Source of the DNA: an uncultured Arcobacteraceae bacterium
GTDB lineage: Bacteria > Campylobacterota > Campylobacteria > Campylobacterales > Arcobacteraceae
NCBI GenBank assembly: GCA_964633845.1
Contig: CAZWLA010000001.1
Location: 31,300-95,299, forward strand
Direction: 5' to 3'
DNA length: 64,000 bases
The notes beneath the pieces were generated by a model, which did no database searches, was not told where the DNA came from, and saw only the letters and a list, made by a program, of their open reading frames with translations. Shown here in pieces: positions 26,956 to 63,373 of the stretch. A program made the translations under genes and the position numbers. The first letter of the stretch is position 1. Every line of letters starts with the position of its first letter.

Positions 26956-26971
26956 AGTCAAAAAAATATTA

Positions 26972-47374: not shown

Positions 47375-47375
47375 T

Positions 47376-48298: not shown

Positions 48299-49393
48299 AT
48301 GTTAAAATATATACTTTCATTTATTTTTATTCTTATTATTGTTACTATAATCTCTCTTAAAAAAATAGATAGTAATATAAATGAGCAAACTATAGAGTTT
48401 GCTATTGATAAATCTAAACTAGCACTTCAATCTCAATTTGAACAAGAAAAATCAGATGCATTAAAATTAGGATTAATGCTAGCACATAATAAACAACTTA
48501 TTGATGCCCTTGAAAATGAAGATGAAGAGTTAGGATACAATATTCTTCACTCAATTATTACAAATATTAAACAGCATACTAATGAAACTATTAGGATACA
48601 GATTATTACAGCTGAAAAAAATATTTTCGCAAGATCTTGGGATGATGTATATGCTGGTATGCCTATTGGTGATTATAGAAAAGACTTGGAGTATTTTAAA
48701 AAGAGTAAAATACCAAGAGCATCAATAGAGGTTGGTGCTATGCTAACTTTAAAAACTACTATTCCAGTATATCAAGATGACTTCCTATTAGGATTTATTG
48801 AGATTATCAGTCTTTTTGATAATGTAACAACTCATCTAAAAAATATGGGTATTGACTTATATGTTTTAATGGATGATAAATATTCAAATATCTCTGTATT
48901 TATGAGAAATAATGCCATTGTAGGTAATTTTATAATTGCAAATAAAAACTACAATAATAACAATATATCAATACTTAATGAGCTTGATTTTAAGAGCTTG
49001 TTATCTGGAGAGATAGAATATAAAAACAAACATTATATCTTTTCAGAAGATATGCTAAATGGGAATGGTAAAAAAATTGGTATCTATTTATTTTCATTAC
49101 CCGAGGTAAATCTTGAATATTTTAAAGCGTACAATGGTGAGTCTGCATCATTAATTAATTTAAGCAGAGATGAACTATATGAAACCACAAGTAATACGCA
49201 TTATGAAGATATTAATAGTGAAAAGCTTTATATTCAAACCCTATTGAATATTAAAGATAATATACCTAGTAAAGATAAAGTAAATCATATTAAATTAATT
49301 CGAACAGAATTAAATAAATATAAAAAAGAAGATTTAATAAATTTTATATTAAATAAACAAAAAACAAAAAGTATACATGGAGAGATAAGATGA
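48299..49393 (+). CDS. Membrane-anchored periplasmic sensor-like (Cache/PDC-like) protein without output domain
   Basis: 364 aa. It has a single N-terminal TM and an alpha/beta region of about 250 aa reminiscent of double-PDC sensor ectodomains. There is no second TM and no kinase, GGDEF or MCP motif. Its stop overlaps the response-regulator start (ATGA). The family call is tentative. Confidence 0.5.
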   Translation: MLKYILSFIFILIIVTIISLKKIDSNINEQTIEFAIDKSKLALQSQFEQEKSDALKLGLMLAHNKQLIDALENEDEELGYNILHSIITNIKQHTNETIRIQIITAEKNIFARSWDDVYAGMPIGDYRKDLEYFKKSKIPRASIEVGAMLTLKTTIPVYQDDFLLGFIEIISLFDNVTTHLKNMGIDLYVLMDDKYSNISVFMRNNAIVGNFIIANKNYNNNNISILNELDFKSLLSGEIEYKNKHYIFSEDMLNGNGKKIGIYLFSLPEVNLEYFKAYNGESASLINLSRDELYETTSNTHYEDINSEKLYIQTLLNIKDNIPSKDKVNHIKLIRTELNKYKKEDLINFILNKQKTKSIHGEIR

Positions 49394-50046
49394 AGATATT
49401 ATTGTTAGAAGATGAATATTCACTAAGAATTAGTATTAAAGAATTTCTTGAAGATTTAAAGTATAGTGTAGATGATTATAGTGATGGGGATGATGCATAT
49501 AATGCAATCTATTCCAATACATATGATCTATTATTGTTTGATGTAAATGTACCAAATATGAGTGGCTTTGAGATATTGAAAGCTATTAGAGATGATAAGC
49601 TTACTATTCCTACTATATTTTTAACATCAATGACAGATATGCAAAGTCTAAAAGAGGGATACAGTGTAGGTTGTTGTGATTATATAAGAAAACCATTTGA
49701 TTTGGATGAGTTAGATTTGCGAATTACACAAGTATATAATAGTTTTTATATGGATAATAACAAAAATATTACATTAGATAGAGATTTAGTATTTGAGATG
49801 AAAGAGGGACAATTATTTTATCAAGATACAGAAATAGTATTAAGAAAAGCAGAAAAAGATATATTAGATTTACTTGTAAAAAATCTTAATTCTACAGTAT
49901 CAATGGGTATGTTTCAAGATGAGATATGGAATGACTATGTAGATCCAGGGACAATCAGAACGCATATAAAAAATTTAAAACAAAAGTTACCAAATAGTGA
50001 TCTTATTAAAAATCGTAGGGGATTAGGATATATAATTGAACGATAG
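49390..50046 (+). CDS. OmpR/PhoB-family response regulator
   Basis: 218 aa. Receiver domain (LLLEDE, phospho-acceptor in LLLFDVNVPNMSG, KP at RKPF). Winged-helix C-terminus (TIRTHIKNLKQKL, RGLGYII). Confidence 0.9.
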   Translation: MKILLLEDEYSLRISIKEFLEDLKYSVDDYSDGDDAYNAIYSNTYDLLLFDVNVPNMSGFEILKAIRDDKLTIPTIFLTSMTDMQSLKEGYSVGCCDYIRKPFDLDELDLRITQVYNSFYMDNNKNITLDRDLVFEMKEGQLFYQDTEIVLRKAEKDILDLLVKNLNSTVSMGMFQDEIWNDYVDPGTIRTHIKNLKQKLPNSDLIKNRRGLGYIIER

Positions 50047-51187
50047 TAGTTATGGCGTAAAAAATGCCTATATTTTTACAGTATTAATTGGTATTATATT
50101 ATTTGCACCACTTTTTTTCTATACGATGCATATGAAGTCAATTCATGATATTAAAAATGAATTGAAATTAAAGTCAAAAGCTTATTTGATTATACAAAAT
50201 ATGGATGCATTTGATACTCATAGTGAATATTTTAAATATCCTAGGTTTCAAACATTTAGATCTGGTCTTTATAATATAAACGGAACAAAGATATTTTCAA
50301 CTATAGATCATAAGATTCCATCATTGCAAAAGGGTTACTATAAATATAATGACAATGCTTATTTTGTATTGCAGCTACCAGCATATAAGTATTTTAATGC
50401 CTCTTATTTAATAGTCGAAAATAAACTATCTTATAACGATGTTTATAAAAAATCAATTTTTATTGCGTTATCAATTATAGTCTTAATATTTTTATTAAGT
50501 ATTATATTTTTAAATAGGTTTGCCAAACCATTTAAAATAGTAAATAAGCAACTTGATAATTTTATAAAAGATTCTATACACGAGATAAATACACCATTAT
50601 CTATTATAAATATAAATATTGATTTGTTTAATAAAAAGTTTGAATCCAATAAGTATACAAATAGGGTAAAAGCAGCTACAAAGGTATTATCAAATATTTA
50701 TAATGATATGGATTATCTAATTAAGCATGATAGAGTACACTATGACAAGAAAAAAATTAATATGTGCCATATGCTAAAAGAGAGAATTGATTATTTTACT
50801 GAGATAGCTTTGATGAAGAATATTAACATAGTAAGTGATATTCAAAGTGATATTCAAATTAATATAAATCCAAAGCAACTACAAACATTGATTGATAATA
50901 ATATATCTAATGCTATAAAATATTCTTATGAAGAAAATATAATTAATATTAATTTATACACTAAAGACAAGCAATACTATTTAGAATTTACTGATTATGG
51001 TATAGGTATTAAAGATATTGATAAGATATTTACAAGATACTATAGAGAAGAGCGACAAACTGGTGGCTTTGGTATAGGTCTTAATATTGTAAAAACTATA
51101 ATTGATGAGAACAATATCACTTTAGATATTAAATCTGAACCTAAAAAAGGTAGTACATTTATTTATATATTTCCTATGAGTATATAG
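50036..51187 (+). CDS. Sensor histidine kinase
   Basis: 383 aa. TM1, a periplasmic loop of about 110 aa, and TM2. H-box SIHEINTPLSII, N-box NNISNAIKYS, G-boxes DYGIGI and GGFGIGLNIVK. The TTG start overlaps the regulator's end, so the start is uncertain. Confidence 0.85.
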   Translation: MNDSSYGVKNAYIFTVLIGIILFAPLFFYTMHMKSIHDIKNELKLKSKAYLIIQNMDAFDTHSEYFKYPRFQTFRSGLYNINGTKIFSTIDHKIPSLQKGYYKYNDNAYFVLQLPAYKYFNASYLIVENKLSYNDVYKKSIFIALSIIVLIFLLSIIFLNRFAKPFKIVNKQLDNFIKDSIHEINTPLSIININIDLFNKKFESNKYTNRVKAATKVLSNIYNDMDYLIKHDRVHYDKKKINMCHMLKERIDYFTEIALMKNINIVSDIQSDIQININPKQLQTLIDNNISNAIKYSYEENIININLYTKDKQYYLEFTDYGIGIKDIDKIFTRYYREERQTGGFGIGLNIVKTIIDENNITLDIKSEPKKGSTFIYIFPMSI

Positions 51188-51218
51188 AGAATTAAAAAGA
51201 TATTATAAATAAATATAA

Positions 51219-51238
51219 TATTTCACACTTATTTCACA
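51219..51238 (+). promoter_or_regulatory. Direct repeat TATTTCACA x2 with 11-bp phasing upstream of soxX (candidate OmpR-type regulator site)
   Basis: TATTTCACA at 51219-51227 and 51230-51238. The second copy ends 9 nt before a TATACT -10 candidate (51248-51253). The soxX ATG is at 51286. Confidence 0.45.
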
Positions 51239-51285
51239 TAATAATTTTATACTTCCACTTGAAATCTATCAGGAGGATTAATTTA

Positions 51286-51849
51286 ATGAAAAAAACAATG
51301 ATTTTATCATCTCTTTTAAGTGTATCTCTTTTAGCTGCAGACTATAGTAGTGTAATTGAATCACCAGATGCAACAGCGATGATTAAAAAAGATTTATTGA
51401 AACCAGCTACAGCGTATGATATGCCAAAAAGTTGTATTTCAACAGATCCGGATGTAATTGCTAGAGGTGCATTTATGTTTCATAATTTAAATGGTAAAAA
51501 AGCAAAAGGTAAATTACCAAAAGGTTTAGCTAAGAAGCAAATGAAGCCAGGTAAAACTTACTTGCCAGGAGACAAAATACCACATAAACAATACGGAAAT
51601 TGCGTAGCATGTCACAATATTGAAGGTGCTAAAGGTGGTGGAAATGTTGGTCCAGATTTAACAGGATATAAAGCTATGTTTATTGACTCTGGTATAAGAG
51701 ACAATAAGTTTGTATTCCAAAAGATTGCAGATCCAAGAGTTGATAATCCAGAAACTACAATGACAATTAACTTAACAACAAAATTATTTACAACAAGAGA
51801 GATATGTGATATCACTTCATATATTGTATCTGAGAAAAAGGGAAAATAG
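51286..51849 (+). CDS. soxX: Monohaem cytochrome c SoxX
   Basis: The track ORF starts at a TTG at 51259. The ATG at 51286 follows AGGAGG and begins the signal peptide MKKTMILSSLLSVSLLA. Motif CVACHNIEGAKGGGNVGPDL. Confidence 0.85.
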   Translation: MKKTMILSSLLSVSLLAADYSSVIESPDATAMIKKDLLKPATAYDMPKSCISTDPDVIARGAFMFHNLNGKKAKGKLPKGLAKKQMKPGKTYLPGDKIPHKQYGNCVACHNIEGAKGGGNVGPDLTGYKAMFIDSGIRDNKFVFQKIADPRVDNPETTMTINLTTKLFTTREICDITSYIVSEKKGK

Positions 51850-52317
51850 ATGGAAAGAAGAAAATTTTTACAAACATTAGGTGCTACAGCAGTAGTTACT
51901 ACTATGGTACCAACAGTTAGTTTTGCAGGTGCTGAAAAACCAACTAGTCCAAATGCGATTTCATATAAAGCTGCAGTAGATGCTATTACTGGTGGAAAAG
52001 AAGCGACAACATCGTCAAAAGTAAAATTAAAAGCTCCAGAGATTGCAGAAAATGGTGCAGTTGTACCAGTTACAGCTACAGTAGAAAGTGCTATGACTGA
52101 TTCTGATTATGTAAAAGCTATCCATATTTTAACTAGTAAAAATGGAAACTCTAGATCAATTAGTGCATACTTAACACCTGCAAATGGAAAAGCAATGCTA
52201 TCAACTAGAATTAAATTAGGAGCAACTCAAGAAGTATCTGCTGTTGCTGAATTAAGTGATGGTTCATTTGTAATTGCATCTCAAAGTGTAAAAGTAACAA
52301 TTGGTGGATGTGGTTGA
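51850..52317 (+). CDS. soxY: Sulfur carrier protein SoxY
   Basis: 155 aa. Tat signal ERRKFLQTLGA. C-terminal carrier arm ends VKVTIGGCG-stop. Confidence 0.92.
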   Translation: MERRKFLQTLGATAVVTTMVPTVSFAGAEKPTSPNAISYKAAVDAITGGKEATTSSKVKLKAPEIAENGAVVPVTATVESAMTDSDYVKAIHILTSKNGNSRSISAYLTPANGKAMLSTRIKLGATQEVSAVAELSDGSFVIASQSVKVTIGGCG

Positions 52318-52367
52318 TCCACTCCCTTTATTAAGCAAAATATAAAAAGAAAATAAAAGGATACAAA

Positions 52368-52700
52368 ATGGGAAGAAAATCATTAATTAAAATTAAGCCA
52401 AAAAAATATAAAGCTGGTGATGTAGTAAAAGTAAGTTTCATGATTATGCATGATATGGAAACAGGTCTAAGAAAAGATAAAAAAACTAAAAAAATAGTAC
52501 CAATGGATTATATTTCAGATTTAAAATTTGAATATAATGGAAATACATTTACAACAATGAAAACTTGGGAAACACTATCTGTAAACCCTGTTGTAAGTAC
52601 ATATATGAAAGTGGATGGTAAAGGTAAAATTAATGTTACTTATACTGAAAGCAATGGTGCAACTGGATCTAAATCTAAAAAGATTAAACCAAAAAAATAA
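52368..52700 (+). CDS. soxZ: SoxZ
   Basis: 110 aa. It has no signal peptide, consistent with export as a SoxYZ complex. Ig-like beta pattern, positioned after soxY. Confidence 0.88.
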   Translation: MGRKSLIKIKPKKYKAGDVVKVSFMIMHDMETGLRKDKKTKKIVPMDYISDLKFEYNGNTFTTMKTWETLSVNPVVSTYMKVDGKGKINVTYTESNGATGSKSKKIKPKK

Positions 52701-52709
52701 GGATAATTC

Positions 52710-53480
52710 ATGAAAACAGGAATTAAATTGGCGTTGTCTGTAGCTCTTGTATCAACACTATCTTTTGGTGGTGATCAGTTTGCAATGAGTGATGCAGATA
52801 GAGCGATGTATGCTGAGATGTTAGAAAATAATCCAGCAGATATTATGGTTGGAAATGGTGAAGAACTTCTAGCTCAATTAGGCGGAGATGAAGCACTTGC
52901 AAAGTATTTAGGTGTATCTGAAGATGATTTAGCTGGATTTATTGCAGGTTTTCCAAGATATATCAAAAAGTTTGATAGAGTTGTAGATGTAAGTCAAATG
53001 CTGCAAGCTATGATGCATGATGCTGGTAAAAAGCCATACAAGTTAAAAAGTTCAAATATGTTTGATATGAGTTCATATGTGAAATCAATAGCAAATGGTG
53101 AGCCAAGTAATATTGATGTAAATGCAAATCCTCAGATGAAAGAGATGTATGCACTTGGAAAGAAAACATTTGAGCAAAAAAGAGGTGGAAGAGGGCTTGC
53201 ATGTCTATCGTGTCATGCTCCTTCTGTAATTGGTACGGTTCTAAGAACTCAACCTTTACCAGATTTAAGCAATAAGGGTGTGGCAGTAGCTGCAACATGG
53301 CCAGCATATAGAATGACAAAGTCATCACTTAGAACTCTTCAAAGAAGATTCCAAGGTTGTATGAAAAATGCACTTCTAAAAGTAATACCTCTTGGTTCAA
53401 AAGAGATGGTAGCACTTGAAGTATACTTAACTGAACAAGCTAAAGGGACTGAAATAGCTATCCCTGGACTTAAGAGATAG
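52710..53480 (+). CDS. soxA: Cytochrome c SoxA (monohaem type)
   Basis: 256 aa. Signal peptide, single CLSCHA motif, and the conserved Cys in RRFQGCMKN. Confidence 0.88.
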   Translation: MKTGIKLALSVALVSTLSFGGDQFAMSDADRAMYAEMLENNPADIMVGNGEELLAQLGGDEALAKYLGVSEDDLAGFIAGFPRYIKKFDRVVDVSQMLQAMMHDAGKKPYKLKSSNMFDMSSYVKSIANGEPSNIDVNANPQMKEMYALGKKTFEQKRGGRGLACLSCHAPSVIGTVLRTQPLPDLSNKGVAVAATWPAYRMTKSSLRTLQRRFQGCMKNALLKVIPLGSKEMVALEVYLTEQAKGTEIAIPGLKR

Positions 53481-53489
53481 GGGCATAAA

Positions 53490-55253
53490 GTGGATATTTC
53501 AAGAAGAGACTTTATGCATATTGCAGCAATTCTAGGAATTGGTGCAGCTACAAATGGATATGCTGGAGGTATTAAAACGCCTAATCAGGTTTCATTAAAA
53601 GATATATATGATTTTAAAGCAAAAGGTAACTTCTCATTATTACATATGTGTGATCTGCATGCTCATATTAAGCCACTATATTGGAGAGAGCCATCAACAC
53701 TGATCTCTGCTCCAAATCTTGTAGGAACTCCAGGATTCTTATGTGGTGAAGCATTTGCAAAGCATTATGGTCTAGAGCCATCAAGCTTAGATGCATATTT
53801 TGATACTCATGTTGATTTTGAATCTTTAGCTAAAAAGTTTGGAAAAATGGGTGGAATCGCTCATATCAAAACTGTTTTAAATAAGATTAGAGATGAAAGA
53901 GGTGAAGACAATGTACTTTTCCTTGATTCTGGTGATACTTGGCAGGGTACTGGTGTCGCATTAAAGACTAAAGGTGAAGCGATTGTAAAAGCTCAAAATT
54001 ACCTTGGTGTAGATGTGATGGTTGGTCACTGGGAATTTACTTATGGTAAAGAGAGAGTTAAAGAATTAATAGAGATGCTTGATGCTAAATTTATTTCTCA
54101 AAATGTAGTTGGGAATGATCCATTTGCTGATGAGTTTGAAGAGCTTATTTTTGAACCATATACGATTCAAGAAAAAGGTGGAGCAAAGATTGGTATTATT
54201 GGTCAATCATTCCCATTTACATCTACTGCAAACCCAAAAGAGTTTACTGAGGGTTGGAGTTTTGGACTAAGACTTGATACTTTACAAGAGTATATTGATG
54301 AGCTTAGAAATGAGCATAAAGTTGATTGTGTTGTTGTATTGTCGCATGATGGATTTAGTGTAGACCAAGAAGTTGCTAAAAAAGTAAATGGTATTGACTT
54401 TATTTTAAGTGGACATACTCATGATCCTTCGCCTGAACCAATTATAGTAAATGATACTGTAATTGTAATTGCGGGTAGTCACGGTAAATATGTTGGTAGA
54501 TTAGATGTAGATGCATCAAATGGTAAAGTAAATGGATATGAGTATAAACTTATTCCAATTGCATCAAATATGATTCCTGCTGATCCAGCTGGTGTAAAAC
54601 TTGTAGATGAGCTATACGCTCCATTTGAAAAAGAGTTTAATGAAGTTTTAGGTCAAACTAAAAATATTCTTTATAAAAGAGATACATTCTTCTCTACATT
54701 TGATCAGCTTATCAATGATGCAATCATGGATGAGATGAAGTGTGATATATCATTTACTCCAGGATATAGATGGGGAACTACTGTATTAGCAGGTGATGAT
54801 GTACTAATGGACAATGTATATGAGATGTGTGGTATCACATATCCAGATGTTTATACATTTGATCTAAAAGGTGCAAAGATTGCAAACCTTTTAGAAGATA
54901 TTGCTGATAATGTATTTAATGCAAATCCACTTTTACAACAAGGTGGAGATATGAGTAGACTAGGTGGAGTTACATATAGTATAGCTGTAGCAGCTGAATC
55001 TGGAAAAAGAATTTCAAATCTAATGATTGGTGGTAAGCCAATTGATTTAGATAAGACATATTCTGTGTCATCTTGGGGTGGAAACTTGCAAAAAGCAGGT
55101 GAAAATCTCCAAGAAGACAAGATAAGGCCTGTTTATGATATTACTAGAGATTATATCAGAAGACAAAAAGTTATTGATGTAAGTAACGAAGGTAATGTTA
55201 CTTTGGTTGATTATGATTGTGGATGCCCTGTAAAAGATTCAAGATCTTGCTAG
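53490..55253 (+). CDS. soxB: Thiosulfohydrolase SoxB
   Basis: 587 aa. GTG start, Tat signal SRRDFMHIAA. Dinuclear metallophosphoesterase motifs (DLHAH, GDTWQG, GHWEF, SGHTHD) and a 5'-nucleotidase-like C-domain. Confidence 0.93.
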   Translation: MDISRRDFMHIAAILGIGAATNGYAGGIKTPNQVSLKDIYDFKAKGNFSLLHMCDLHAHIKPLYWREPSTLISAPNLVGTPGFLCGEAFAKHYGLEPSSLDAYFDTHVDFESLAKKFGKMGGIAHIKTVLNKIRDERGEDNVLFLDSGDTWQGTGVALKTKGEAIVKAQNYLGVDVMVGHWEFTYGKERVKELIEMLDAKFISQNVVGNDPFADEFEELIFEPYTIQEKGGAKIGIIGQSFPFTSTANPKEFTEGWSFGLRLDTLQEYIDELRNEHKVDCVVVLSHDGFSVDQEVAKKVNGIDFILSGHTHDPSPEPIIVNDTVIVIAGSHGKYVGRLDVDASNGKVNGYEYKLIPIASNMIPADPAGVKLVDELYAPFEKEFNEVLGQTKNILYKRDTFFSTFDQLINDAIMDEMKCDISFTPGYRWGTTVLAGDDVLMDNVYEMCGITYPDVYTFDLKGAKIANLLEDIADNVFNANPLLQQGGDMSRLGGVTYSIAVAAESGKRISNLMIGGKPIDLDKTYSVSSWGGNLQKAGENLQEDKIRPVYDITRDYIRRQKVIDVSNEGNVTLVDYDCGCPVKDSRSC

Positions 55254-55262
55254 GATATTAGG

Positions 55263-55286
55263 TGTTGGCAGCGGCAACTGCCAACA
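55263..55286 (+). terminator. GC-rich 9-bp stem-loop after soxB (weak terminator/attenuator candidate)
   Basis: TGTTGGCAG, CGGCAA, CTGCCAACA. The T-tract is poor. Confidence 0.4.
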
Positions 55287-55355
55287 ACAATTTGATATAT
55301 AAAATATACACATTGCGAATATATTTTATTATATCTATACAAAAAGGATAATAAA

Positions 55356-56522
55356 ATGAAAAAAACAACAATGATTAAATTAGCGACAAGTGCAGCCGCA
55401 GTATTATTAGCAACAACTTCAGCAAATGCTGGATATACAATGAAAAAACAAGTTGGTGATGCTGCAACTAAGCTTACATTCTTTGGATTCTCTCAAATTG
55501 TAGCAGGATCTGGTGATGGCTTTATCGCAGATGCAAATGACTCACAAGTAAAATTTGGAGCAGATAGATTAAGACTTGGATGGAAATATGTATCTGGACC
55601 AGTAAGAGGTAAAGTATTTTTAGACTTTAACCAAGATGCTGGTGCAAAAGGCAAAGAAGATGTTGGTGCATATAGAGTTGTAAAAGATGCATTTATAGCT
55701 TATAAATTCTCAGATGCCGCAGTTGTGAAAGCTGGTATTATTAAAACTCCTGTAGGTATGGGATTTACAATTCCTGGATGGAATTTAGATATTGTAAAAA
55801 GAGCATTTGATAAGCAACTTGCATTTGAACGAGGAAATGGTTTTATGATCTCTGGAAGAGATATGGGTATGGGTAATGATGCAAAAGTAAATGGACTTGA
55901 GATGGGTCATGAAAGACCAATGCAAGGTTGGGGTTATGATGTTATGATTGGTAACCAAACTACAAGATCAGGAGCAGTTGCTGAAAGTGATGGGGACTCA
56001 TCAAGAGGAAATGCATATATGGCAAGGGTACACTATGATAGAGGTGAAGCACTTCACTTAGAAGTATCTGGTGGTGTATCTCCAGAAGCTGCTGGAACTG
56101 CTGGAAGTGCTGATTATAAAGTATTAAATATCGGTCTTGATTCACACTTTGGTGAAGGTAAAAATATAAAAGCTGAGTACTATGATGTATCTGGTATTAA
56201 AGGTGCTGATCATGATATGGATACTTTAGCATTAACATATACGCAGTATTTAACTCCTAGTTTTGAATTTGCAATCAAAGATATCTCTGGAAATGAAAAT
56301 CAAGCAGGTACAAAAAGAGATATTAGAAATACATATGTAGGATTTAACTACTATCCAAATAAGGTATCTACAAAGATGGATAGAGGTGGAAAAAGAAAAA
56401 ATAACCAACATGTAATCAAAGTAAATTATGTTGCAGTAGCAGGTGATGCAGCAACATTTGTTGGTGCAGGTGGAACATATAAAGATGATGCAGTACTTGC
56501 AATGTACCAATTTAAATTCTAG
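55356..56522 (+). CDS. Outer-membrane beta-barrel porin
   Basis: 388 aa. Signal peptide ending ANA, alternating amphipathic strands, aromatic C-terminus YQFKF. Confidence 0.75.
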   Translation: MKKTTMIKLATSAAAVLLATTSANAGYTMKKQVGDAATKLTFFGFSQIVAGSGDGFIADANDSQVKFGADRLRLGWKYVSGPVRGKVFLDFNQDAGAKGKEDVGAYRVVKDAFIAYKFSDAAVVKAGIIKTPVGMGFTIPGWNLDIVKRAFDKQLAFERGNGFMISGRDMGMGNDAKVNGLEMGHERPMQGWGYDVMIGNQTTRSGAVAESDGDSSRGNAYMARVHYDRGEALHLEVSGGVSPEAAGTAGSADYKVLNIGLDSHFGEGKNIKAEYYDVSGIKGADHDMDTLALTYTQYLTPSFEFAIKDISGNENQAGTKRDIRNTYVGFNYYPNKVSTKMDRGGKRKNNQHVIKVNYVAVAGDAATFVGAGGTYKDDAVLAMYQFKF

Positions 56523-56539
56523 GAATTATTCCTAAAATA

Positions 56540-56568
56540 AATCAAACTACCTTTTGGGTAGTTTGATT
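56540..56568 (+). terminator. 12-bp stem-loop after the porin gene
   Basis: AATCAAACTACC, TTTTG, GGTAGTTTGATT. The downstream sequence is AT-rich but has no clean T-run. Confidence 0.45.
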
Positions 56569-56570
56569 AT

Positions 56571-56666
56571 ATAATTTATAATAAAGTCACTTATTCTTTT
56601 TTCTTTATTATTTCTTAGAGATTTCTATTTCTACAAATATATTTAAGTGGCTTTATTATAAATTAT
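56571..56666. repeat. 23-bp inverted repeat (1 mismatch) with ~50-bp spacer, upstream of the exported thiol/sulfur cluster
   Basis: ATAATTTATAATAAAGTCACTTA (56571-56593) pairs with TAAGTGGCTTTATTATAAATTAT (56644-56666). A TATAAT at 56667-56672 follows immediately, and the ATG is at 56697. Confidence 0.6.
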
Positions 56667-56696
56667 TATAATGTATCATAATCAACACAAGGGATA

Positions 56697-57071
56697 ATGA
56701 TGAGATTACTTTTTATTTTAATTTTTATTACTCTGAATGTATATGCCGTACAATGGCATACTCTTAATGAAGCACAATCTATACAAAAACAAAATTCAAA
56801 AATAATCATGCTTTATATTACAGCATCTCATTGTCCATATTGCAAAAGAATGGATAAAAATGTATTTGAAGATAGAAAAATGTCATCATGGCTTGAAAAT
56901 AGATTTATATCTGTAAAGATTGATATGGATTTTGATGATATACCTATGAATCTAAATCCAAAGATGACACCTACATTTTATTTTATATCTAAAGATGAAA
57001 AAATAATAAAAACAATACCAGGATCTTGGAAAATAGAAGATTTTAAAGATTTAACAGGAAAAATAAAATGA
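56697..57071 (+). CDS. Exported thioredoxin-fold protein (CPYC)
   Basis: 124 aa. Signal peptide and ASHCPYCKRMDKNVF. Same architecture as the ORFs at 8598 and 61454. Confidence 0.75.
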   Translation: MMRLLFILIFITLNVYAVQWHTLNEAQSIQKQNSKIIMLYITASHCPYCKRMDKNVFEDRKMSSWLENRFISVKIDMDFDDIPMNLNPKMTPTFYFISKDEKIIKTIPGSWKIEDFKDLTGKIK

Positions 57072-57511
57072 AAATATTAATTAAATTTTTTAGTATTATT
57101 ACTATACTATCAATAAGTCTATTTGCAGAAACAGAGCTTGTAGAGCCATTACCATCTATAATAGAACCAAGAAAAATAGTATTATCAATAGGAAGTGGTA
57201 AATCAGAAGATATACACCATATTTTAGGAAGTGCAAATAATATTCTTAAATTTTATGGGCCAGAAAAAGTTGAGATGGTAATAGTGGCATATTATCATGG
57301 GATTAAATCAGTAATGCTAGAAAATATGAACATTATAAAAAGAGTGAAAGCACTACAGCTTTATGATGTAGAATTTATAGCATGTGGTAATACTATGAGA
57401 ACAAAAAATATTCAAGAGCATCAATTAATAGATGATATCTCTATTGCTACAGCTGGTCTTGTAGAGATTATTGAGAGACAAAAAGCTGGATATATCAATA
57501 TAAATCCATAA
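57068..57511 (+). CDS. Exported DsrE-superfamily protein (COG1416 / MTH1491-like)
   Basis: 147 aa. Signal peptide, conserved-Cys motif FIACGNTMR, C-terminal AGLVEIIERQKAGYININP typical of this family. ATGA overlap with the previous gene. Confidence 0.65.
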   Translation: MKILIKFFSIITILSISLFAETELVEPLPSIIEPRKIVLSIGSGKSEDIHHILGSANNILKFYGPEKVEMVIVAYYHGIKSVMLENMNIIKRVKALQLYDVEFIACGNTMRTKNIQEHQLIDDISIATAGLVEIIERQKAGYININP

Positions 57512-57574
57512 TATTTCACATTTAGTTCATAAAGGCATGATAATATTCCCATATAAAAATAAGAAGGATATAAT

Positions 57575-58501
57575 ATGAAAAATATTATTTTAGCAGTGGT
57601 ATTTCTTTTAACTGCAACAGTATTAAGTGCAAAAGGTGATCTGCATCTATTTGATGTAGATAATAAAGACAAAAAAATAACTACAAAAACAATTGAACAA
57701 GCTTTTATAGATGGTGGCTTTACAATTGGTATTAATCAAAATATGAATACTCCATTTAAAAAGCAATTTGAACAAACAGATTTTCAAGTATTTACACTTA
57801 TGACTATGTATCATACAAAATTAAGTATAGACCTTGTTAATAAATATGCAGACGCAGGAGTATTTACACCAATGGGTGTTGGTATCTATCAAAAACTTAA
57901 TGATAATACATTACATGTATCTGTATTAACTGCTAAAGCACATGAAAAAATATTAGGTATTTCAAATAGTCCAATACTGCAAGAGATTGAGGCTAAGGTA
58001 TTAGCAATACTAAAAAAGGCTCTGCCAAACGCAAACTATAAACTAAGTGATAAACCGTTAGGTGAATCAAGAAAATTATTAACTAAATATGAGCTTGCAC
58101 TAGAAGAAGATGATGATGCTGATGAAATCATAGAAGAGCTTCAAATGACACTTGAGTCATCATTTAAGCCAAAAGGGTTTGTAGTTCCAAAGAAATTAAC
58201 ATTTGATATGGATTTAAATCCAGATGATAAAGATGATTCTATATATGAGTATTATATAAATTATTCTATCTGTAAGTTAGAGGTTATATATACAGTTGCA
58301 AAGACACGACCAGATGCTGCTGCATTTGCTCCATGTACAACAATGGTATATAAAAAAAGAGATGAAAATAAGATTGTTTTAGGGTTCCCATCTGTATACA
58401 ATTGGATGAGTAGTGCACTTGTAGATGATAAAGCATCTTTAGATGCTTTAATGAAAGCACAAAATGATTTTGAAGGAATACTTCAAGAGGTAACAGAATA
58501 G
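57575..58501 (+). CDS. Exported protein with two DUF302-like halves
   Basis: 308 aa with a signal peptide. Half 1: GGFTIGINQN...AGVFTPMGVGIYQKLNDNTLHVSVL. Half 2: PKGFVVPKKL...AAFAPCTTMVYKKRDENKIVLGFP. An acidic linker EEDDDADE separates them. Assignment is by eye only. Confidence 0.55.
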   Translation: MKNIILAVVFLLTATVLSAKGDLHLFDVDNKDKKITTKTIEQAFIDGGFTIGINQNMNTPFKKQFEQTDFQVFTLMTMYHTKLSIDLVNKYADAGVFTPMGVGIYQKLNDNTLHVSVLTAKAHEKILGISNSPILQEIEAKVLAILKKALPNANYKLSDKPLGESRKLLTKYELALEEDDDADEIIEELQMTLESSFKPKGFVVPKKLTFDMDLNPDDKDDSIYEYYINYSICKLEVIYTVAKTRPDAAAFAPCTTMVYKKRDENKIVLGFPSVYNWMSSALVDDKASLDALMKAQNDFEGILQEVTE

Positions 58502-58503
58502 TT

Positions 58504-58968
58504 ATGAAAAAGATTCTATTATTAATATCAATGGCATTATTTTTAAATGCCCAAGATGGTGTAAAAAAACTGGCTTTGGATTTAACAACTGGTGATATTA
58601 AAAAAATTGAGAGAAAAGTATTATCAGGGACTGTAAAGCATAAAAATTATTATGAAGGTAAGCTTGAAGAGTTGGAAGTTGCGATTGTTATTCATGGTGC
58701 TGCATATAGATTTTTTATAAAGGATCTATCATCTACACCATATAAAGATGAGAAATCACTTATAGAAGCACAAGTTGATTTGCAAAAAAGACTAAGAGCA
58801 TTAAGTGAAATATATGAGGTTGAATTTTATGCATGTGCATCTGGATTGAAAAAGCTAAAGATTGATCCTAGTAATATAGTTGATTTTGTGACACTATCCC
58901 CTACATCAACAATAGTATTGATTGATAAACAAGATGAAGGGTATGCATATATACCTATATCTGATTAA
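58504..58968 (+). CDS. Exported DsrE-superfamily protein (COG1416 / MTH1491-like), paralog of 57068
   Basis: 154 aa. Signal peptide, FYACASGLKKL conserved-Cys motif, C-terminal DEGYAYIP. Confidence 0.65.
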   Translation: MKKILLLISMALFLNAQDGVKKLALDLTTGDIKKIERKVLSGTVKHKNYYEGKLEELEVAIVIHGAAYRFFIKDLSSTPYKDEKSLIEAQVDLQKRLRALSEIYEVEFYACASGLKKLKIDPSNIVDFVTLSPTSTIVLIDKQDEGYAYIPISD

Positions 58969-58977
58969 GGAACCAAT

Positions 58978-59427
58978 ATGAAGAAATTTTTTTTAAGTAT
59001 TTTATTTATTAGTACACTGCTAGTAGCTTCAAATACACATAAAGATAAGCTATTAGAAGAAGCAAAAAAAGAAGCAGGTGAAATAAGTCCAGCTATTTTA
59101 AAAAAAATGATTGACAAAGAAGAAGCTGTAGTAATGCTTGATGTTAGAGAGAGTGAGCAGCGAGCTGAAGGACAAATATATGCTGATGACACATATTCAA
59201 TTACAAGAGGAAATCTTGAGTTTTATGTAGGAAATAAAATCAAAGATAAAAATATAGTAATTGTTACATATTGTAGGGGTGGAAGTAGAGGTGCATTAGC
59301 TGCACAAACACTTAGACGCTTAGGATATAAAAATGCTACAAATCTTAAAGGGGGATTGAAGGCTTGGGCAAAGGCTGGTTATCCAATTGAAACAGGCCTT
59401 GGTATTATTAATCTAGCAAAAGAATAA
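58978..59427 (+). CDS. Exported single-domain rhodanese (sulfurtransferase)
   Basis: 149 aa. Signal peptide and active-site loop VTYCRGGSRGALAA (CxxGxR). Confidence 0.8.
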   Translation: MKKFFLSILFISTLLVASNTHKDKLLEEAKKEAGEISPAILKKMIDKEEAVVMLDVRESEQRAEGQIYADDTYSITRGNLEFYVGNKIKDKNIVIVTYCRGGSRGALAAQTLRRLGYKNATNLKGGLKAWAKAGYPIETGLGIINLAKE

Positions 59428-59438
59428 GGAATTAAATT

Positions 59439-59702
59439 ATGAATAGATTTATACAAAATTCTATAATAGTTGTATCTGCTTTAGTTTTTACTTCGTGTGC
59501 AAATATTGAGATGGGATTTGAAGAAGATAGCCCATTTTATTCTGCTCCAAATAAAGAAATAATAGAGGCTAGAGAGGATAGCCAATTTACTAAAAATGTT
59601 ATTAATAGAAAACATGATAAACTATCAACAATAAATATTAGAAAAACAAATAATAACGAGGAAAATGAAACTACATTTTATTATGAATTTGTAGAGGAGT
59701 AA
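59439..59702 (+). CDS. Small lipoprotein, hypothetical
   Basis: 87 aa. Lipobox VFTSC. No recognisable domain. Confidence 0.5.
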   Translation: MNRFIQNSIIVVSALVFTSCANIEMGFEEDSPFYSAPNKEIIEAREDSQFTKNVINRKHDKLSTINIRKTNNNEENETTFYYEFVEE

Positions 59703-59733
59703 TCTTTAGTTTATATTGTAAAAAGGGATAAAA

Positions 59734-61452
59734 TTGATTTATAAAAGATTGTTAGTCTTATTGGTATTTTTAAGTTCATTAGTAAATGCCTCAAATAGTT
59801 TTTTAATGCCAGATCAGGCTTTTAAAACTTCACTAAATACAACAAAAGATACAATTGTATTTAATCTAGAATTAGCAGATTCTATATATATTTATGATGA
59901 GCAATTAGTAATTAATATTATACAAAATGATAAAACAACTGATATTACAAAACAATTAAATATACCTAAATCTCAAGAATATCATGATACTCAAGTGCAC
60001 TTTGGAATATTAAATATAAAAGTTCCTAGTATTTTAATTCAACAAATCACAAACAATAATGATGCTACAGTTGAGTTTAATTTTCAAGGATGTTCAAAAG
60101 CTGGTCTTTGTTATCAGCCCATGACAAAAAGCATTGAATTTAAAGGTGAAAAAGTTGCTGTACTTAAACCAGTCAAGGAAATAAAAAGTGAATCAGGATT
60201 AATAGTAGATACATTTAGTAATGGAAGTATATTTTTGGTACTACTTACATTCTTTGGATTTGGATTGCTACTGGCACTAACACCTTGTGTATTCCCTATG
60301 ATACCTATTTTATCTAGTATTATTGTATCTCATTCTACGAAAACTGGTAAAGAGATGGATGCTATGCAAGGATTAAAACTTTCATTTGTTTATGTATTAG
60401 CTATGTCTGTTGCTTATACAGTAGCTGGTATTATAGCTGGTTTATTTGGAGCAAACTTACAAGCTGCATTACAAAATCCATATGTACTAGTGTCATTTGC
60501 TGCTATGTTTGTAGCACTTGCTTTTTCAATGTTTGGTTATTATGAAATATCTATACCTACAACTTGGCAAACAAAGCTTGATAAATTATCACATGGTCAA
60601 GATGAAAATAAAGGCTATATGTCTGTAGCTGTCATGGGATTCTTATCAGCACTTATTGTTGGACCTTGTGTGGCACCACCACTAGCAGGTGCTTTAGTGT
60701 ATATTGGTCAAACAGGTGATGCACTACTTGGAGGAGCAGCACTATTTGTGATGAGTATGGGTATGGGAGCACCATTACTTTTAGTTGGAGCAGGAGCTGG
60801 TAAATATATGCCAAAACCTGGAGGATGGATGGATACGGTATCTAAAGTATTTGGTGTAGTGATGCTAGGTGTTGCTATTTGGATGCTTGAAAGAATTATC
60901 CCTATTGGGTTTACATTTATGCTTTGGTCATTACTGTTCTTTGGAGCTGGTATATACTTATTAAGAGCAGTGCATATGATTATATTTAAGATATTTGCCA
61001 CTTTATTAATTTTAATTGGTATTATTTTTGGTATTGGAATTGCTACAAAAGCTACAAATATTTTAAATCCTTTAGAAAATGTGATTGGTGAGAAAGTAGT
61101 GCATCTTGAATTTAAAAGAGTAAAAAGTGTAAAAGGGCTAGATGAGATTATTGCAAACTCTACACAGCCAATTATGCTTGATTTCTATGCTGATTGGTGT
61201 ATTAGCTGTAAAGAGATGGAACACGATACATTTAGCAATAAGAAAGTACAAGATAAGTTAAAAGGTTTTATTTTACTACAAGTTGATACAACAGCAAATA
61301 GTGATGAAGATAAAGCATTATTAAAAAAGTTTAATCTATTTGGACCTCCAGGGATTATTTTCTGGAAAGACAAAAAAGAGTTGAAAAATATTACAACAAT
61401 TGGATATAAAAGTCCTGAAGAGTTCTTAGAGATAATGGGACAAGAGTTTTAA
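59734..61452 (+). CDS. dsbD: Thiol:disulfide interchange protein DsbD (full length: alpha, TM and gamma domains)
   Basis: 572 aa. TTG start after AAAGGGA. Alpha-domain cysteines in GCSKAGLCYQP, TM cysteines LTPCVFPM and GPCVAPPLA, C-terminal thioredoxin domain YADWCISCKEME. Confidence 0.88.
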   Translation: MIYKRLLVLLVFLSSLVNASNSFLMPDQAFKTSLNTTKDTIVFNLELADSIYIYDEQLVINIIQNDKTTDITKQLNIPKSQEYHDTQVHFGILNIKVPSILIQQITNNNDATVEFNFQGCSKAGLCYQPMTKSIEFKGEKVAVLKPVKEIKSESGLIVDTFSNGSIFLVLLTFFGFGLLLALTPCVFPMIPILSSIIVSHSTKTGKEMDAMQGLKLSFVYVLAMSVAYTVAGIIAGLFGANLQAALQNPYVLVSFAAMFVALAFSMFGYYEISIPTTWQTKLDKLSHGQDENKGYMSVAVMGFLSALIVGPCVAPPLAGALVYIGQTGDALLGGAALFVMSMGMGAPLLLVGAGAGKYMPKPGGWMDTVSKVFGVVMLGVAIWMLERIIPIGFTFMLWSLLFFGAGIYLLRAVHMIIFKIFATLLILIGIIFGIGIATKATNILNPLENVIGEKVVHLEFKRVKSVKGLDEIIANSTQPIMLDFYADWCISCKEMEHDTFSNKKVQDKLKGFILLQVDTTANSDEDKALLKKFNLFGPPGIIFWKDKKELKNITTIGYKSPEEFLEIMGQEF

Positions 61453-61453
61453 T

Positions 61454-61849
61454 ATGTTGAAAAGTGTTTTAGTTAGTATATTATTTGTATCAACAGTTTT
61501 TGCTGGATCTATTAATTGGTCAAAAGACAATTTAGATGATACAATTAGTAGTACAAAAAATAAAAAGCAGAAAATTATAATGGCATATTTTTGGCAAGAA
61601 GGTTGTAATGCTTGTGAATATATGAGTGATAGAGTATTTGCAGAAGATGAGGTATCTGCATTTATAAATGAAAATTTTATACCATATAAAACAGATAAAT
61701 TAACATTTGATTATCCTGTATTTGCTTTTCCTGCTATATATTTTATTGGTGAAGATGAGCAAGAATTAGGGGAACCAATAATGGGTGCTAGAAATGCAGA
61801 TGAGTTTATGTTCATGATTGAAGAGATAAAAGAACAGTTTTCTAAATAG
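61454..61849 (+). CDS. Exported thioredoxin-fold protein (CNAC)
   Basis: 131 aa. Signal peptide and QEGCNACEYMSDRVF. It starts 2 nt after the dsbD stop. Confidence 0.72.
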   Translation: MLKSVLVSILFVSTVFAGSINWSKDNLDDTISSTKNKKQKIIMAYFWQEGCNACEYMSDRVFAEDEVSAFINENFIPYKTDKLTFDYPVFAFPAIYFIGEDEQELGEPIMGARNADEFMFMIEEIKEQFSK

Positions 61850-61867
61850 TAATAAAAGCTGTATATT

Positions 61868-61906
61868 AAAGCACTAGAGTCAATTTTGGCACTAGTGCTT
61901 TTTTTA
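61868..61906 (+). terminator. Intrinsic terminator closing the dsbD cluster
   Basis: AAAGCACTAG (61868-61877), 14-nt loop, CTAGTGCTTT (61892-61901), T-run to 61906. Confidence 0.7.
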
Positions 61907-61920
61907 TTTATTAAACTTAC

Positions 61921-61950
61921 TTGACAAACATACACTCAATTTGGTATAAT
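61921..61950 (+). promoter_or_regulatory. Sigma-70-type promoter of hrcA-grpE-dnaK
   Basis: TTGACA (61921-61926), 18-nt spacer, TATAAT (61945-61950) with upstream TGG (extended -10 like). Confidence 0.6.
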
Positions 61951-61994: not shown

Positions 61995-62780
61995 ATGACA
62001 AAAAAAGATTTTTTACTACAATCAATAATTCAAGCATATATTAGAACAGATGAACCTATAGGCTCAACTGCTTTAAAAGATATGTATAATATCACTTATT
62101 CACCAGCTACAATAAGAGGTTACTTTAAAAAGTTAGGTGATGAGGGATATTTAGCACAAGAGCATATTAGTAGTGGTAGAACACCTACTACTGAAGCTTT
62201 AAAAGAGTACTGGGAAAGAAAGTTAGATTTTACTTTAGAGTGTATTGATTTTAATCAGCTTGAATATCTAGCATCTAAATTAGGACTTACAGTATTTGTT
62301 AAACAACAACTAAAAGATAAATTACAACGAGTTTTAAATATTGAAAATCTTTATATGATTTTAGAATTTGAAAGTTTTGCTATAACTATTAAGTTTAACT
62401 CTGCACTTTATAGATTTTTAGATGATATGATTGGTTTAGAGCCAAGTTCTATTATGAAAATTAGTAAGGAAGTAGGAGCAACACAACTTTATGAAGAGTT
62501 AGCAAATACTTTAGCAAATAGTGCATATGAGATTATTAATACAAAACAGTTCTTAAGACTTGCAGTTGATTACGATATTGATGAAACAATTATTAATAGT
62601 TTTTTAAATGGTCAAATACTTGAAAATATATCAGATGGTATATATTTTGAGCAACTTTTACCATCAGGTTTCATTGGTATTAATCATAGTACCAAGATAG
62701 GTGATACAGATATAAATATGTTTGTAGTTGGTCACCTATCAAAAGATTATGAATATTTTTATAAAAGGATAGCCGCGTGA
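61995..62780 (+). CDS. hrcA: Heat-inducible transcription repressor HrcA (short epsilonproteobacterial form)
   Basis: 261 aa. N-terminal winged helix (EPIGSTALKD...SPATIRGYFKKLGDEGYL). It is the first gene of hrcA-grpE-dnaK. Confidence 0.85.
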   Translation: MTKKDFLLQSIIQAYIRTDEPIGSTALKDMYNITYSPATIRGYFKKLGDEGYLAQEHISSGRTPTTEALKEYWERKLDFTLECIDFNQLEYLASKLGLTVFVKQQLKDKLQRVLNIENLYMILEFESFAITIKFNSALYRFLDDMIGLEPSSIMKISKEVGATQLYEELANTLANSAYEIINTKQFLRLAVDYDIDETIINSFLNGQILENISDGIYFEQLLPSGFIGINHSTKIGDTDINMFVVGHLSKDYEYFYKRIAA

Positions 62781-63373
62781 GCGAAGAGATAAAAAAAGAA
62801 AATGAAGATATTTTAGAAGAGGCAGAAGTTGAAGCAAGTGAAATTGTTGAAGAAACTGCCCAAATTGATGAGACAGAGAAATTTGCTAGCTTAGATGAAG
62901 AATTTAAAGCAAAAATGGAAGCAAAAGTAGCAGCTGCGGAAGCAAAAGCTACTGAAGCTGAAGATAAATTTTTAAGAACTCATGCAGATTTTGAAAATAT
63001 CAAAAAAAGACTTGAGAGAGAAAAATACTCTGCTATTGATTTTGCCAGTGAAAAGTTTGCAAAAGATCTATTAGCACCAATTGATGCACTTCAAATGGCA
63101 TTAATTTCTGCAAATGGAGATTTTGAAGCTGAACAAGTAGTTGATAAATTAAAAGAGGGTATTGAATTAACTGTAAAAGCATTTAATACAGCATTTGAGA
63201 AGCATGATATTACAGAAGTTGAATATGATGTATTTAATCCAGAACATCACAATGCTGTTATGAAAGTTGATAGTGAAGATGTTGAATCTGGACAGATTGT
63301 AATGGTTATGCAAAAGGGTTATACTTTAAAAGATAGACTGTTGCGTGAAGCTATGGTTTCAGTAGCAAACTAG
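62777..63373 (+). CDS. grpE: Nucleotide exchange factor GrpE
   Basis: 198 aa. GTG start overlapping the hrcA stop (GTGA). Acidic N-terminus, RTHADFENIKKRLERE, C-terminal beta domain. Confidence 0.92.
   Translation: MSEEIKKENEDILEEAEVEASEIVEETAQIDETEKFASLDEEFKAKMEAKVAAAEAKATEAEDKFLRTHADFENIKKRLEREKYSAIDFASEKFAKDLLAPIDALQMALISANGDFEAEQVVDKLKEGIELTVKAFNTAFEKHDITEVEYDVFNPEHHNAVMKVDSEDVESGQIVMVMQKGYTLKDRLLREAMVSVAN

Follow-up and report, generated by a model that had tools for sequence, protein, structure and literature searches.

What do eight tightly packed genes that directly follow a sox operon contribute to sulfur oxidation? This question is raised by a 64,000-nucleotide (nt) stretch of DNA from an uncultured Arcobacteraceae bacterium (GenBank assembly GCA_964633845.1, contig CAZWLA010000001.1, positions 31,300 to 95,299 of the forward strand), which we refer to as the window and whose own numbering we use throughout. 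The open reading frame (ORF) list places eight plus-strand ORFs, here g1 to g8, at 56697-61849, directly after soxXYZAB and a porin gene. An ATGA overlap joins g1 to g2, and the remaining intergenic gaps are, in order, 63, 2, 9, 11, 31 and 1 nt. A first-pass annotation, made from the sequence alone, had described these ORFs as an all-exported, self-contained thiol-redox and sulfur-transfer system linked to sox. All eight were found on the plus strand where it had placed them, along with every motif it had quoted (CPYC, FIACGNTMR...GYININP, FYACASGLK...GYAYIP, CRGGSRG and CNAC). We propose that the cluster is a modular Sox accessory in which periplasmic persulfide carriers would be kept reduced by DsbD and thioredoxin (Trx) proteins, and we give this reading an even chance.

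Export signals, protein families and conserved cysteines

Export was called with a heuristic that combines a K/R n-region, the mean hydropathy of the h-region, and an AXA-type site or a lipobox. Seven products have a K/R n-region, an h-region hydropathy of 2.5-3.4 and an AXA-type site at residues 16-20, and g6 has the lipobox VFTS-C in place of the AXA-type site. The cytoplasmic controls Psd, SulR, HrcA and GrpE had hydropathy scores of 0.2-1.4. The claim that the whole cluster is exported therefore held, with signals predicted on 8/8 products and not on the controls. The mature proteins are almost without cysteines other than the predicted functional ones: g1 and g8 each have a CxxC, g2, g4 and g5 have one cysteine each, g3 has two and g7 has six. 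The predicted catalytic cysteines are invariant across orthologues. Searches with Pfam, NCBIfam, profiles and structures also upheld the family assignments that had been made for the cluster, as described below for each product.

The exported products g2 (57068-57511) and g4 (58504-58968) belong to the DsrE superfamily. Both exceeded the Pfam DsrE (PF02635) gathering threshold of 22.7 bits, g2 with 32.2 bits and g4 with 47.4 bits, and an hhalign comparison of their profiles identified them as paralogues (probability 98%). The g2 profile matched 1L1S (E = 2e-18 over 33-144) and 2PD2 (E = 3e-13), and the g4 profile matched the MTH1491/ST0148 branch (E = 4e-4). An AlphaFold (AF2) model of g2, with a predicted local distance difference test (pLDDT) value of 82, gave Foldseek target template modelling (TM) scores of 0.92 to 1L1S and 0.78 to YchN, and it also matched DsrEFH chains (2HY5). 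Both proteins fall within the MTH1491/ST0148 (COG1416-type) branch, including its C-terminal G[WY]xYI motif. The single cysteine of each, C106 in g2 (invariant in 68/68) and C111 in g4 (28/28), aligns with the cysteine of MTH1491 and ST0148. Among the g2 orthologues, 27/68 have a cysteine in the h-region of the signal peptide, at the position aligned with residue 15 of g2; in locus L034, the sole context inspected, it lies in LMIC, which is not a canonical lipobox.

Members of the DsrE family have an established chemistry of Cys-based sulfane or thiosulfonate carriage (PMC3397948, PMC4175335). The DsrEFH, TusBCD and DsrE3-TusA relays share their superfamily fold with g2, as the Foldseek matches to the 2HY5 chains indicate. 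These relays are cytoplasmic, are often hetero-oligomeric (EFH) and pass sulfur onward to DsrC or TusE, whereas g2 and g4 carry export signals, fall in the MTH1491/ST0148 branch and lack F- or H-type partners. Membership in the DsrEFH/TusBCD hetero-oligomers was rejected, because the cluster has two paralogous E-like genes with signal peptides and no F/H-like ORFs.

The product of g3 (57575-58501) is exported and matched Pfam DUF302 (PF03625) at a borderline score of 23.8 bits against a cut-off of 23. Its structural model (pLDDT 83.5) aligned by Foldseek with the DUF302 structures 1Q9U, 7TJ1 and 1J3M (E = 3e-6 to 5e-4, target TM scores of 0.66-0.78), each of which spans about half of g3. The secondary-structure pattern of g3 repeats, and an hhalign comparison of its N-terminal and C-terminal halves was weak (E = 0.006) and in register. 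These results support the prediction that g3 is a tandem DUF302 pseudo-dimer of the TT1751-like fold. A single-sequence search of the PDB with g3 and g4 returned nothing useful, and profiles and predicted structures were required.

The two cysteines of g3 are confined to its C-terminal module, C233 in YSICK and C254 in FAPCT. The tandem DUF302 family is small, with 184 representatives at 50% identity among 1.84 billion. Among 62 full-length members, ranging down to about 16% identity, 48 have both cysteines, 13 have neither and one has a single cysteine. Because the two are kept or lost together, C233 and C254 appear to act as a pair. Domain fusions gave no functional clue, as longer members of the family only add DUF302 repeats.

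The rhodanese g5 (58978-59427) is an exported single-domain protein. It scored 54.7 bits against Pfam Rhodanese (PF00581), for which the cut-off is 22.2, and its active-site loop has the six residues C99-R-G-G-S-R within CRGGSRG; C99 is conserved in 5/5. Over the whole domain g5 matched the Sud structure 1QXN (E = 1e-11), and it matched the tandem rhodanese 6MXV with E = 3e-31. It is 55-73% identical to the rhodaneses of four sox-linked Sulfurimonas loci (L005, L013, L020 and L060) and 25% identical to the Malaciobacter rhodanese, which has no catalytic cysteine at the aligned position. Sud, the periplasmic polysulfide-sulfur transferase of Wolinella succinogenes, resembles g5 in being a small, exported rhodanese of one domain and in having one catalytic cysteine. 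However, Sud serves polysulfide respiration rather than Sox, and there are no psr genes near g5. SoxL, the sox-encoded rhodanese of Allochromatium, is likewise small, exported and single-domain.

The two Trx-fold products g1 (56697-57071, DsbH/Thioredoxin_7 type) and g8 (61454-61849, DsbH/Thioredoxin_2 type) are both exported and matched Thioredoxin_2/DsbH/Thioredoxin_7 in Pfam. The CPYC of g1 is C46/C49, and this CxxC is invariant in 61/61; the CNAC of g8 is C51/C54. Both resemble DsbH- and DsbD-gamma-like reductases, and the best PDB relative, 2LST, shares HCPYC. No NCBIfam or PDB match named SoxW or SoxS was obtained for g1 or g8 at the thresholds used, and a Sulfurovum paper labels g1-type genes soxW.

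Between the rhodanese and DsbD, g6 (59439-59702) is predicted to encode an 87-aa lipoprotein, which had no Pfam family match. Its homologue in a sister lineage is 53% identical, has the lipobox and termini conserved, and also lies just 5' of dsbD; by this conservation, we take g6 to be a real gene. The following gene, g7 (59734-61452), encodes a full-length DsbD with alpha, beta and gamma domains, which matched DsbD_N, DsbD_TM and Thioredoxin in Pfam. It was the sole cluster product above an NCBIfam equivalog-type cut-off (NF001419, 514.9 bits against 330, residues 9-568). Its six canonical cysteines, Cys120/126, 185/312 and 489/492, are all invariant in 13/13. We rejected the assignment of g7 to TsoB (NF045694) of the Tso selenoprotein operon, against which it scored 222 bits with a cut-off of 805; there was no in-frame UGA and there were no TsoA or TsoC matches. 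TsoB is a selenoprotein of a separate system, which combines a rhodanese with the membrane and Trx domains of DsbD, and this combination is independent evidence that a rhodanese and a DsbD can work together.

A sox-linked core with optional extensions

The gene neighborhood was surveyed in 80 loci, one per species, that were found with the g3 profile and onto which all window proteins were mapped. The surveyed genomes were mostly Sulfurimonas and Sulfuricurvum, and loci with enough sequence 5' of g3 were counted as informative. In 45/50 informative loci g3 was preceded, on its own strand, by soxB, with a median separation of 3.3 kb, so that the predicted link to sox was borne out and the arrangement of sox and core is far beyond chance. 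Exact copies of the locus are present in public assemblies, and the nearest species representative is a marine metagenome-assembled genome labelled Campylobacteraceae bacterium (88% for g3).

The typical gene order was soxB - porin - MBL-fold SoxH-like - [Trx] - DsrE - DUF302x2 - [DsrE] - [rhodanese] - [DsbD - Trx]. The MBL and Trx genes overlap in typical genomes, as do the Trx and DsrE genes, so that the core there belongs to the sox operon, and its genes overlap or nearly abut those for SoxB, the porin and the MBL protein. The window has the maximal extension of this layout, yet it is without the MBL gene, and this loss coincides with a structured spacer 5' of g1. A second DsrE gene directly followed g3 in 20/76 loci; DsbD followed in 10/63 loci and a rhodanese in 3/63. 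In all, a g5-type rhodanese is present in about 4 of the loci surveyed, and a DsbD-Trx pair comes after the core in about 10 Sulfurimonas loci besides the window. An abundant sister lineage has all of the cluster genes except the rhodanese. Thus, rather than a self-contained eight-gene system, as had been supposed, the cluster is modular, with a core of Trx-DsrE-DUF302x2 to which a DsrE, a rhodanese and a DsbD-Trx pair are optionally added. The core accompanied sox, and only DsbD had non-sox relatives, in Arcobacteraceae. Copper tolerance or cytochrome c maturation, the context that the first-pass annotation had named as telling against a sulfur role, was not in evidence: no ccs, ccm or cop genes surrounded the core in the loci examined.

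Two observations concern the genes between soxB and the core. The porin after soxB is non-orthologous among these genomes, being PorO/P-like and about 388 aa here and in some genomes and OprD-type and about 510 aa in most. An MBL-fold SoxH-like gene lies between the porin and Trx genes in nearly all relatives (compare 55356-56696 of the window with 6669-9170 of L034).

Three types of cluster pair the tandem DUF302 protein with SoxYZ, namely soxXYZAB, FCSD-SoxYZ-Rieske (in Sulfurovum) and SoxCD-SoxYZ-Trx-MOSC. The protein tracks SoxYZ rather than SoxAXB. In the second type (L054, 6409-10912), genes for an FCSD/SoxF-like flavoprotein, SoxY, SoxZ, a Rieske-like protein and a 137-aa ORF without a family are found with the tandem DUF302 gene, and SoxAXB was not found nearby; we considered the 137-aa ORF as a DsrE and rejected it. 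The third type (L076, 41-6580, minus strand) comprises the molybdoenzyme SoxC, a SoxD-like protein, SoxY, SoxZ, a Trx, a MOSC-domain protein and two tandem-DUF302 paralogues, one of which has a lipoprotein signal. This gene combination looks undescribed; the MOSC domain is associated with the chemistry of sulfur and molybdenum. The tandem DUF302 proteins of both clusters retain both cysteine motifs.

Components of this locus have been described before. DsrE-family genes are found in the sox clusters of Cupriavidus and Sulfitobacter, DUF302 genes in the sox clusters of Acidithiobacillia and Sulfitobacter and in a cyanobacterial sqr operon, and sox clusters with DsrE-family or DUF302 genes recur in Alpha- and Betaproteobacteria and Acidithiobacillia. 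Gwak et al. 2022 annotated a "periplasmic DsrE-like sulfurtransferase" in the sox operon of Methylovirgula thiovorans (MHY1_00068) and proposed a sulfur transfer for it. The sox-adjacent dsrE, soxW and soxH1 genes of Sulfurovum indicum were 2.2-3.8-fold up on thiosulfate. In both organisms an exported DsrE-family gene lies in or beside sox, as g2 does, and in S. indicum its position beside Trx and MBL/SoxH genes is the layout of most surveyed loci; we liken these dsrE genes to g2 by description. The two reports are annotation or hypothesis, and they mention no tandem DUF302, second DsrE, rhodanese or DsbD extension. The DUF302 proteins of Acidithiobacillia, Sulfitobacter and cyanobacteria share with g3 a recurrent association with periplasmic sulfur oxidation across phyla. 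They are described as single-domain proteins (e.g., 191 aa), whereas g3 is a tandem of about 300 aa with a cysteine pair and belongs to a distinct small family. The suggestion that the gene set is undescribed thus held in part: sox-linked DsrE-like, SoxW-like and DUF302 genes have been published, but they have never been characterized biochemically. The components, a sox-linked import of reductant and periplasmic DsrE-like carriers were already known or proposed; new in this analysis are the sox-linked core, the covarying cysteine pair, the three SoxYZ cluster types, the maximal eight-gene variant and the composite origin discussed below.

A proposed Sox accessory role weighed against its rivals

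We propose that the module has three parts: a sox-specific core of g1, g2 and g3 with the paralogue g4, the optional rhodanese g5, and a reductant-import part formed by g6-g8. We infer each sulfur-transfer and electron-transfer step by the cluster proteins as follows. Thiosulfate or polysulfide would enter through the sox-adjacent porin. By established Sox chemistry, SoxAX and SoxB leave a persulfide on the carrier cysteine of SoxY. The single-cysteine carriers g2 (C106), g4 (C111) and g5 (C99) would then take up, buffer or deliver sulfane sulfur, and the DUF302 protein, through C233/C254, would be an acceptor or partner of SoxYZ. DsbD would pass electrons from the cytoplasm to the small Trx proteins, and mixed disulfides, sulfenic acids and dead-end adducts on SoxY and the carriers would be reduced. 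By analogy with the flow from SoxV to SoxW and SoxS and from DsbD to DsbG, this reset may keep the carriers active in the oxidizing periplasm.

Both analogies have limits. The reduction of SoxW by SoxV, a CcdA-type protein, is an established route of reductant import into Sox. In Paracoccus, Rhodovulum and Bradyrhizobium, SoxV, SoxW and SoxS form a sox-encoded, thiosulfate-induced path from a membrane importer to small periplasmic thioredoxins, which is the role that we propose for g7 and g1/g8. However, SoxV has the membrane domain only, whereas g7 adds alpha and gamma domains, and the window cluster would be regulated by SulRS rather than by SoxR. We therefore do not assign g7 to SoxV, and its role would be analogous only. 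In E. coli, as Depuydt et al. are said to have found in 2009, DsbG and DsbC fed by DsbD rescue single-cysteine periplasmic proteins from sulfenylation or mixed disulfides. By comparison, g1 and g8 belong to the small, monomeric type of Trx protein, unlike DsbG/DsbC-like dimers, and their clients would be sulfur carriers.

A bolder version of the proposal, which we consider rather unlikely, casts the tandem DUF302 protein as a periplasmic sulfur acceptor and counterpart of DsrC, with Trx-DsrE-DUF302x2 as the missing hand-over of the split Campylobacterota Sox. In this version C233/C254 would take sulfane sulfur from the DsrE-like carrier, from SoxY-persulfide, or from both, and would form a persulfide or trisulfide. 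The hand-over would run between SoxY1Z1 and SoxCD/SoxY2Z2, or to or from S0 or polysulfide. If true, it would also account for the DsrE and DUF302 genes, so far unexplained, in the sox clusters of Acidithiobacillia and Alpha- and Betaproteobacteria.

Several findings count against the proposal of a Sox accessory. No function has been demonstrated for any MTH1491-branch DsrE or any DUF302 protein. The g2 and g4 profiles did not align significantly with E. coli TusD, and g2 was out of register; the equivalence of the g2/g4 cysteine with the catalytic Cys78 of TusD is therefore unproven. Neither cysteine is present in 13 of the 62 tandem-DUF302 members. Orphan tandem-DUF302 genes of 45-47% identity and with the cysteine pair intact lie next to rpsF-ssb-rpsR, far from sox, in L065 and L070 (about 10001-10909), and because of these the family is not strictly tied to the sox operon. 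Many relatives dispense with g4-g8, and a terminator-like hairpin and a 174-nt structured spacer part the porin gene from g1. The DsbDs most similar to g7 beyond its own lineage are those of Arcobacter and Malaciobacter (53-54% identity), which are found in hrcA-grpE-dnaK-x-mltA-psd-x-rhodanese-Trx-DsbD with no sox; g7 is only 41-46% identical to sox-linked Sulfurimonas DsbDs.

This last finding bears on whether the cluster is a composite produced by neighborhood, in which only g1-g4, and perhaps g5, are Sox accessories. In that case g6-g8 would be a general periplasmic reductant import that serves cytochrome c maturation and general periplasmic thiol protection, and they would abut a sox block that was placed or inserted in an ancestral mltA-psd...dsbD...hrcA-grpE-dnaK region. 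We hold this explanation to be possible, though on balance doubtful. Consistent with it, the window keeps mltA-psd immediately 5' of the sox block and hrcA-grpE directly 3' of g8. Because this context is common to the window and to Arcobacteraceae, the g7 DsbD occupies an older chromosomal neighborhood, and P0400 has a DsbD of the g7 type in an unrelated context. The DsbD end of the cluster may thus be partly a legacy of where it stands. However, DsbD-Trx adjoins sox in at least three independent Sulfurimonadaceae arrangements, and in Sulfurimonas hydrogeniphila the dsbD promoter is bound by SulR. Moreover, g6 and g8 were considered as homologues of the small ORF and Trx adjacent to the Arcobacter DsbD and were found not to be homologous, and g8 follows g7 in the same DsbD-then-Trx order as in sox-linked Sulfurimonas loci. 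The rhodanese also sides with the sox-linked Sulfurimonas proteins over the Malaciobacter one. The gaps of 9, 11, 31 and 1 nt and the lack of a terminator before 61868 indicate that g4-g8 are co-transcribed, and housekeeping and Sox roles are not mutually exclusive.

The sulfur-carrying part of the proposal is instead at issue if the cluster serves pure redox maintenance or chaperoning, with the DsrE-like and DUF302 proteins as redox partners, assembly factors or thiol-protecting chaperones of SoxYZ or SoxAX that carry no sulfane sulfur, and with the Trx and DsbD proteins doing no more than holding cysteines in the reduced state. That SoxV, SoxW and SoxS show a requirement of Sox for reductive maintenance agrees with such a role, and so do the TusD result, the absence of proven sulfurtransferase activity in the MTH1491 branch, and the DUF302 cysteine pair, which could be a simple redox disulfide. 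Nevertheless, a single invariant cysteine in a DsrE fold and a six-residue CRxGxR rhodanese loop are hallmarks of persulfide carriers rather than of proteins that cycle between dithiol and disulfide, and a Sud-like rhodanese has no obvious chaperone role. We regard this alternative as distinctly unlikely. A role outside Sox, in the periplasmic detoxification or trafficking of a thiophilic metal(loid) (Cu, Hg or As) or of selenium, is in our estimate highly improbable. DUF302 genes do occur elsewhere in contexts related to arsenic/sqr and to metals, a DsbD/Trx pair is reminiscent of the ScsB/C copper-tolerance systems, and there is weak NCBIfam similarity to the selenoprotein families TsoB, rhodanese_LYCAU and Trx7/PDZ. 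Those NCBIfam scores are, however, far under the cut-offs, the window and the 80 loci have no metal transporter, metallochaperone, mer/ars/cop genes or selenocysteine machinery, and the linkage, in 45 of 50 loci, is to sox.

Sulfurimonas and related bacteria are the dominant oxidizers of sulfide and thiosulfate at hydrothermal vents, in oxygen-minimum zones and in sediments. The cluster offers candidate genes for the questions of how sulfane sulfur exits from SoxY in the split Sox system, how S8 or polysulfide is loaded, and how carrier cysteines survive in the periplasm. The core module of about three to four genes is a defined candidate set, with one or two invariant cysteines per protein that can be mutated or trapped. 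If the carriers were confirmed, DsrE-type relays, so far characterized only in the cytoplasm, would reach the periplasm, and DUF302 would get its first function.

Regulation and flanking features

SulRS is a thiosulfate-responsive regulator of sox (PMC12936845). In S. hydrogeniphila, thio-dsbD-...-sulRS-soxXYZAB are co-transcribed, with higher expression on thiosulfate than on S8, and SulR footprints lie on the soxX and dsbD promoters; that study ends at soxB (PMC12936845). The sulfur-dependent expression expected of such a cluster is thus found in published work, as thiosulfate induction of Sulfurovum dsrE and soxW and of Sulfurimonas thio and dsbD. In the window, the OmpR-type response regulator SulR and the histidine kinase SulS are encoded at 49390-51187 on the plus strand, which also holds the features described below from 48299 to 61911, and are 57-63% identical to their Sulfurimonas orthologues. 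A putative SulR box, TTTCACA-N4-TTTCACA, lies at 51221-51238 and is the sole perfect match in the window. It lies in the sulS-soxX spacer, is analogous to the published TTACA direct repeat while differing from the TTACA-based consensus, and is probably the SulR box of this lineage. The published SulR consensus TTTAYATTTAKKAGWTACAMTTA had no match in the window at three or fewer mismatches, including before g1. Because of this absence and the hairpin and spacer before g1, co-regulation of the cluster with sox in this genome is unproven.

A weak SulR-box-like repeat with two mismatches lies on promoter-like hexamers in the g2-g3 gap (57514-57531), and this copy before g3 is within the chance expectation for loose matches. 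The same gap (57512-57574) has two promoter-like hexamer pairs (57515-57574), which are either an internal promoter for g3-g8 or chance. Upstream of sulRS, a membrane-anchored dCache_3 sensor-domain protein (48299-49393; Pfam dCache_3, E = 3e-12) has no kinase domain; most loci keep its gene 5' of sulRS, and the protein might serve SulS as a co-sensor. The co-transcribed "ABC transporter substrate-binding protein" of the SulRS paper may be its orthologue (PMC12936845).

The sox genes themselves, soxX, soxY, soxZ, soxA and soxB, occupy 51259-55253 and are 55-89% identical to Sulfurimonadaceae sox, with Pfam labels on a sister contig. SoxY ends in GGCG, and soxCD is absent from the window's sox operon. 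The porin gene (55356-56522; Pfam Porin_O_P, E = 4e-7) is followed by the terminator-like hairpin at 56540-56568, which has a stem of 12-13 bp. A long inverted repeat 5' of g1 (56571-56666) is a candidate operator or RNA stem, with 23-nt arms at 56571-56593 and 56644-56666 and a 50-nt spacer, and it occurs once within the window. The porin-g1 spacer folds at z = -8.1, and both the hairpin and the inverted repeat are kept in the nearest relative, L004, via compensatory changes, which in the inverted repeat is C:G to T:A. A Rfam scan of 51-62.2 kb found nothing significant, the inverted repeat included.

At the other end, an intrinsic terminator at 61868-61911 closes the cluster 5' of the hrcA promoter, with a stem of about 14 bp and a U-run (z = -3.4); the hairpin proper is 61868-61901, with the T-run after it. 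Repeat and folding analysis thus recovered both the inverted repeat and the terminator that had been noticed around the cluster. We considered the downstream hairpin as CIRCE, the HrcA operator, and rejected it, as there was no match and it folds as an ordinary terminator; the window as a whole had no canonical CIRCE element. Just before hrcA, 61921-61950 holds a sigma-70 consensus that is perfect, TTGACA-18-TATAAT, and has an extended TG.

Comparison of 46220-48197 and 61995-63373 with L087 and L089 showed that the window shares mltA-psd...dsbD...hrcA-grpE-dnaK with Arcobacter and Malaciobacter. Within the window, everything from dCache and sulRS to g4, sox included, is flanked by psd on one side and the rhodanese gene on the other, like an inserted island. 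In the sister lineage L084 (1-621), a divergent YeeE/YedE-type Sulf_transp gene lies 5' of dCache-sulRS-sox, where the window has mltA-psd, so that one candidate importer of sulfur beside sox is not common to these two closely related lineages.

Farther from the cluster, a periplasmic nitrate reductase operon occupies 23310-30500. It encodes a TAT-signal molybdopterin NapA, a NapB-like cytochrome, two NapG/H-like proteins of the ferredoxin type and a NapL-like beta-propeller protein, and the genes ahead of it are for a Crp-family regulator and a protein with a PilJ domain. The source organism is probably a nitrate-respiring sulfur oxidizer.

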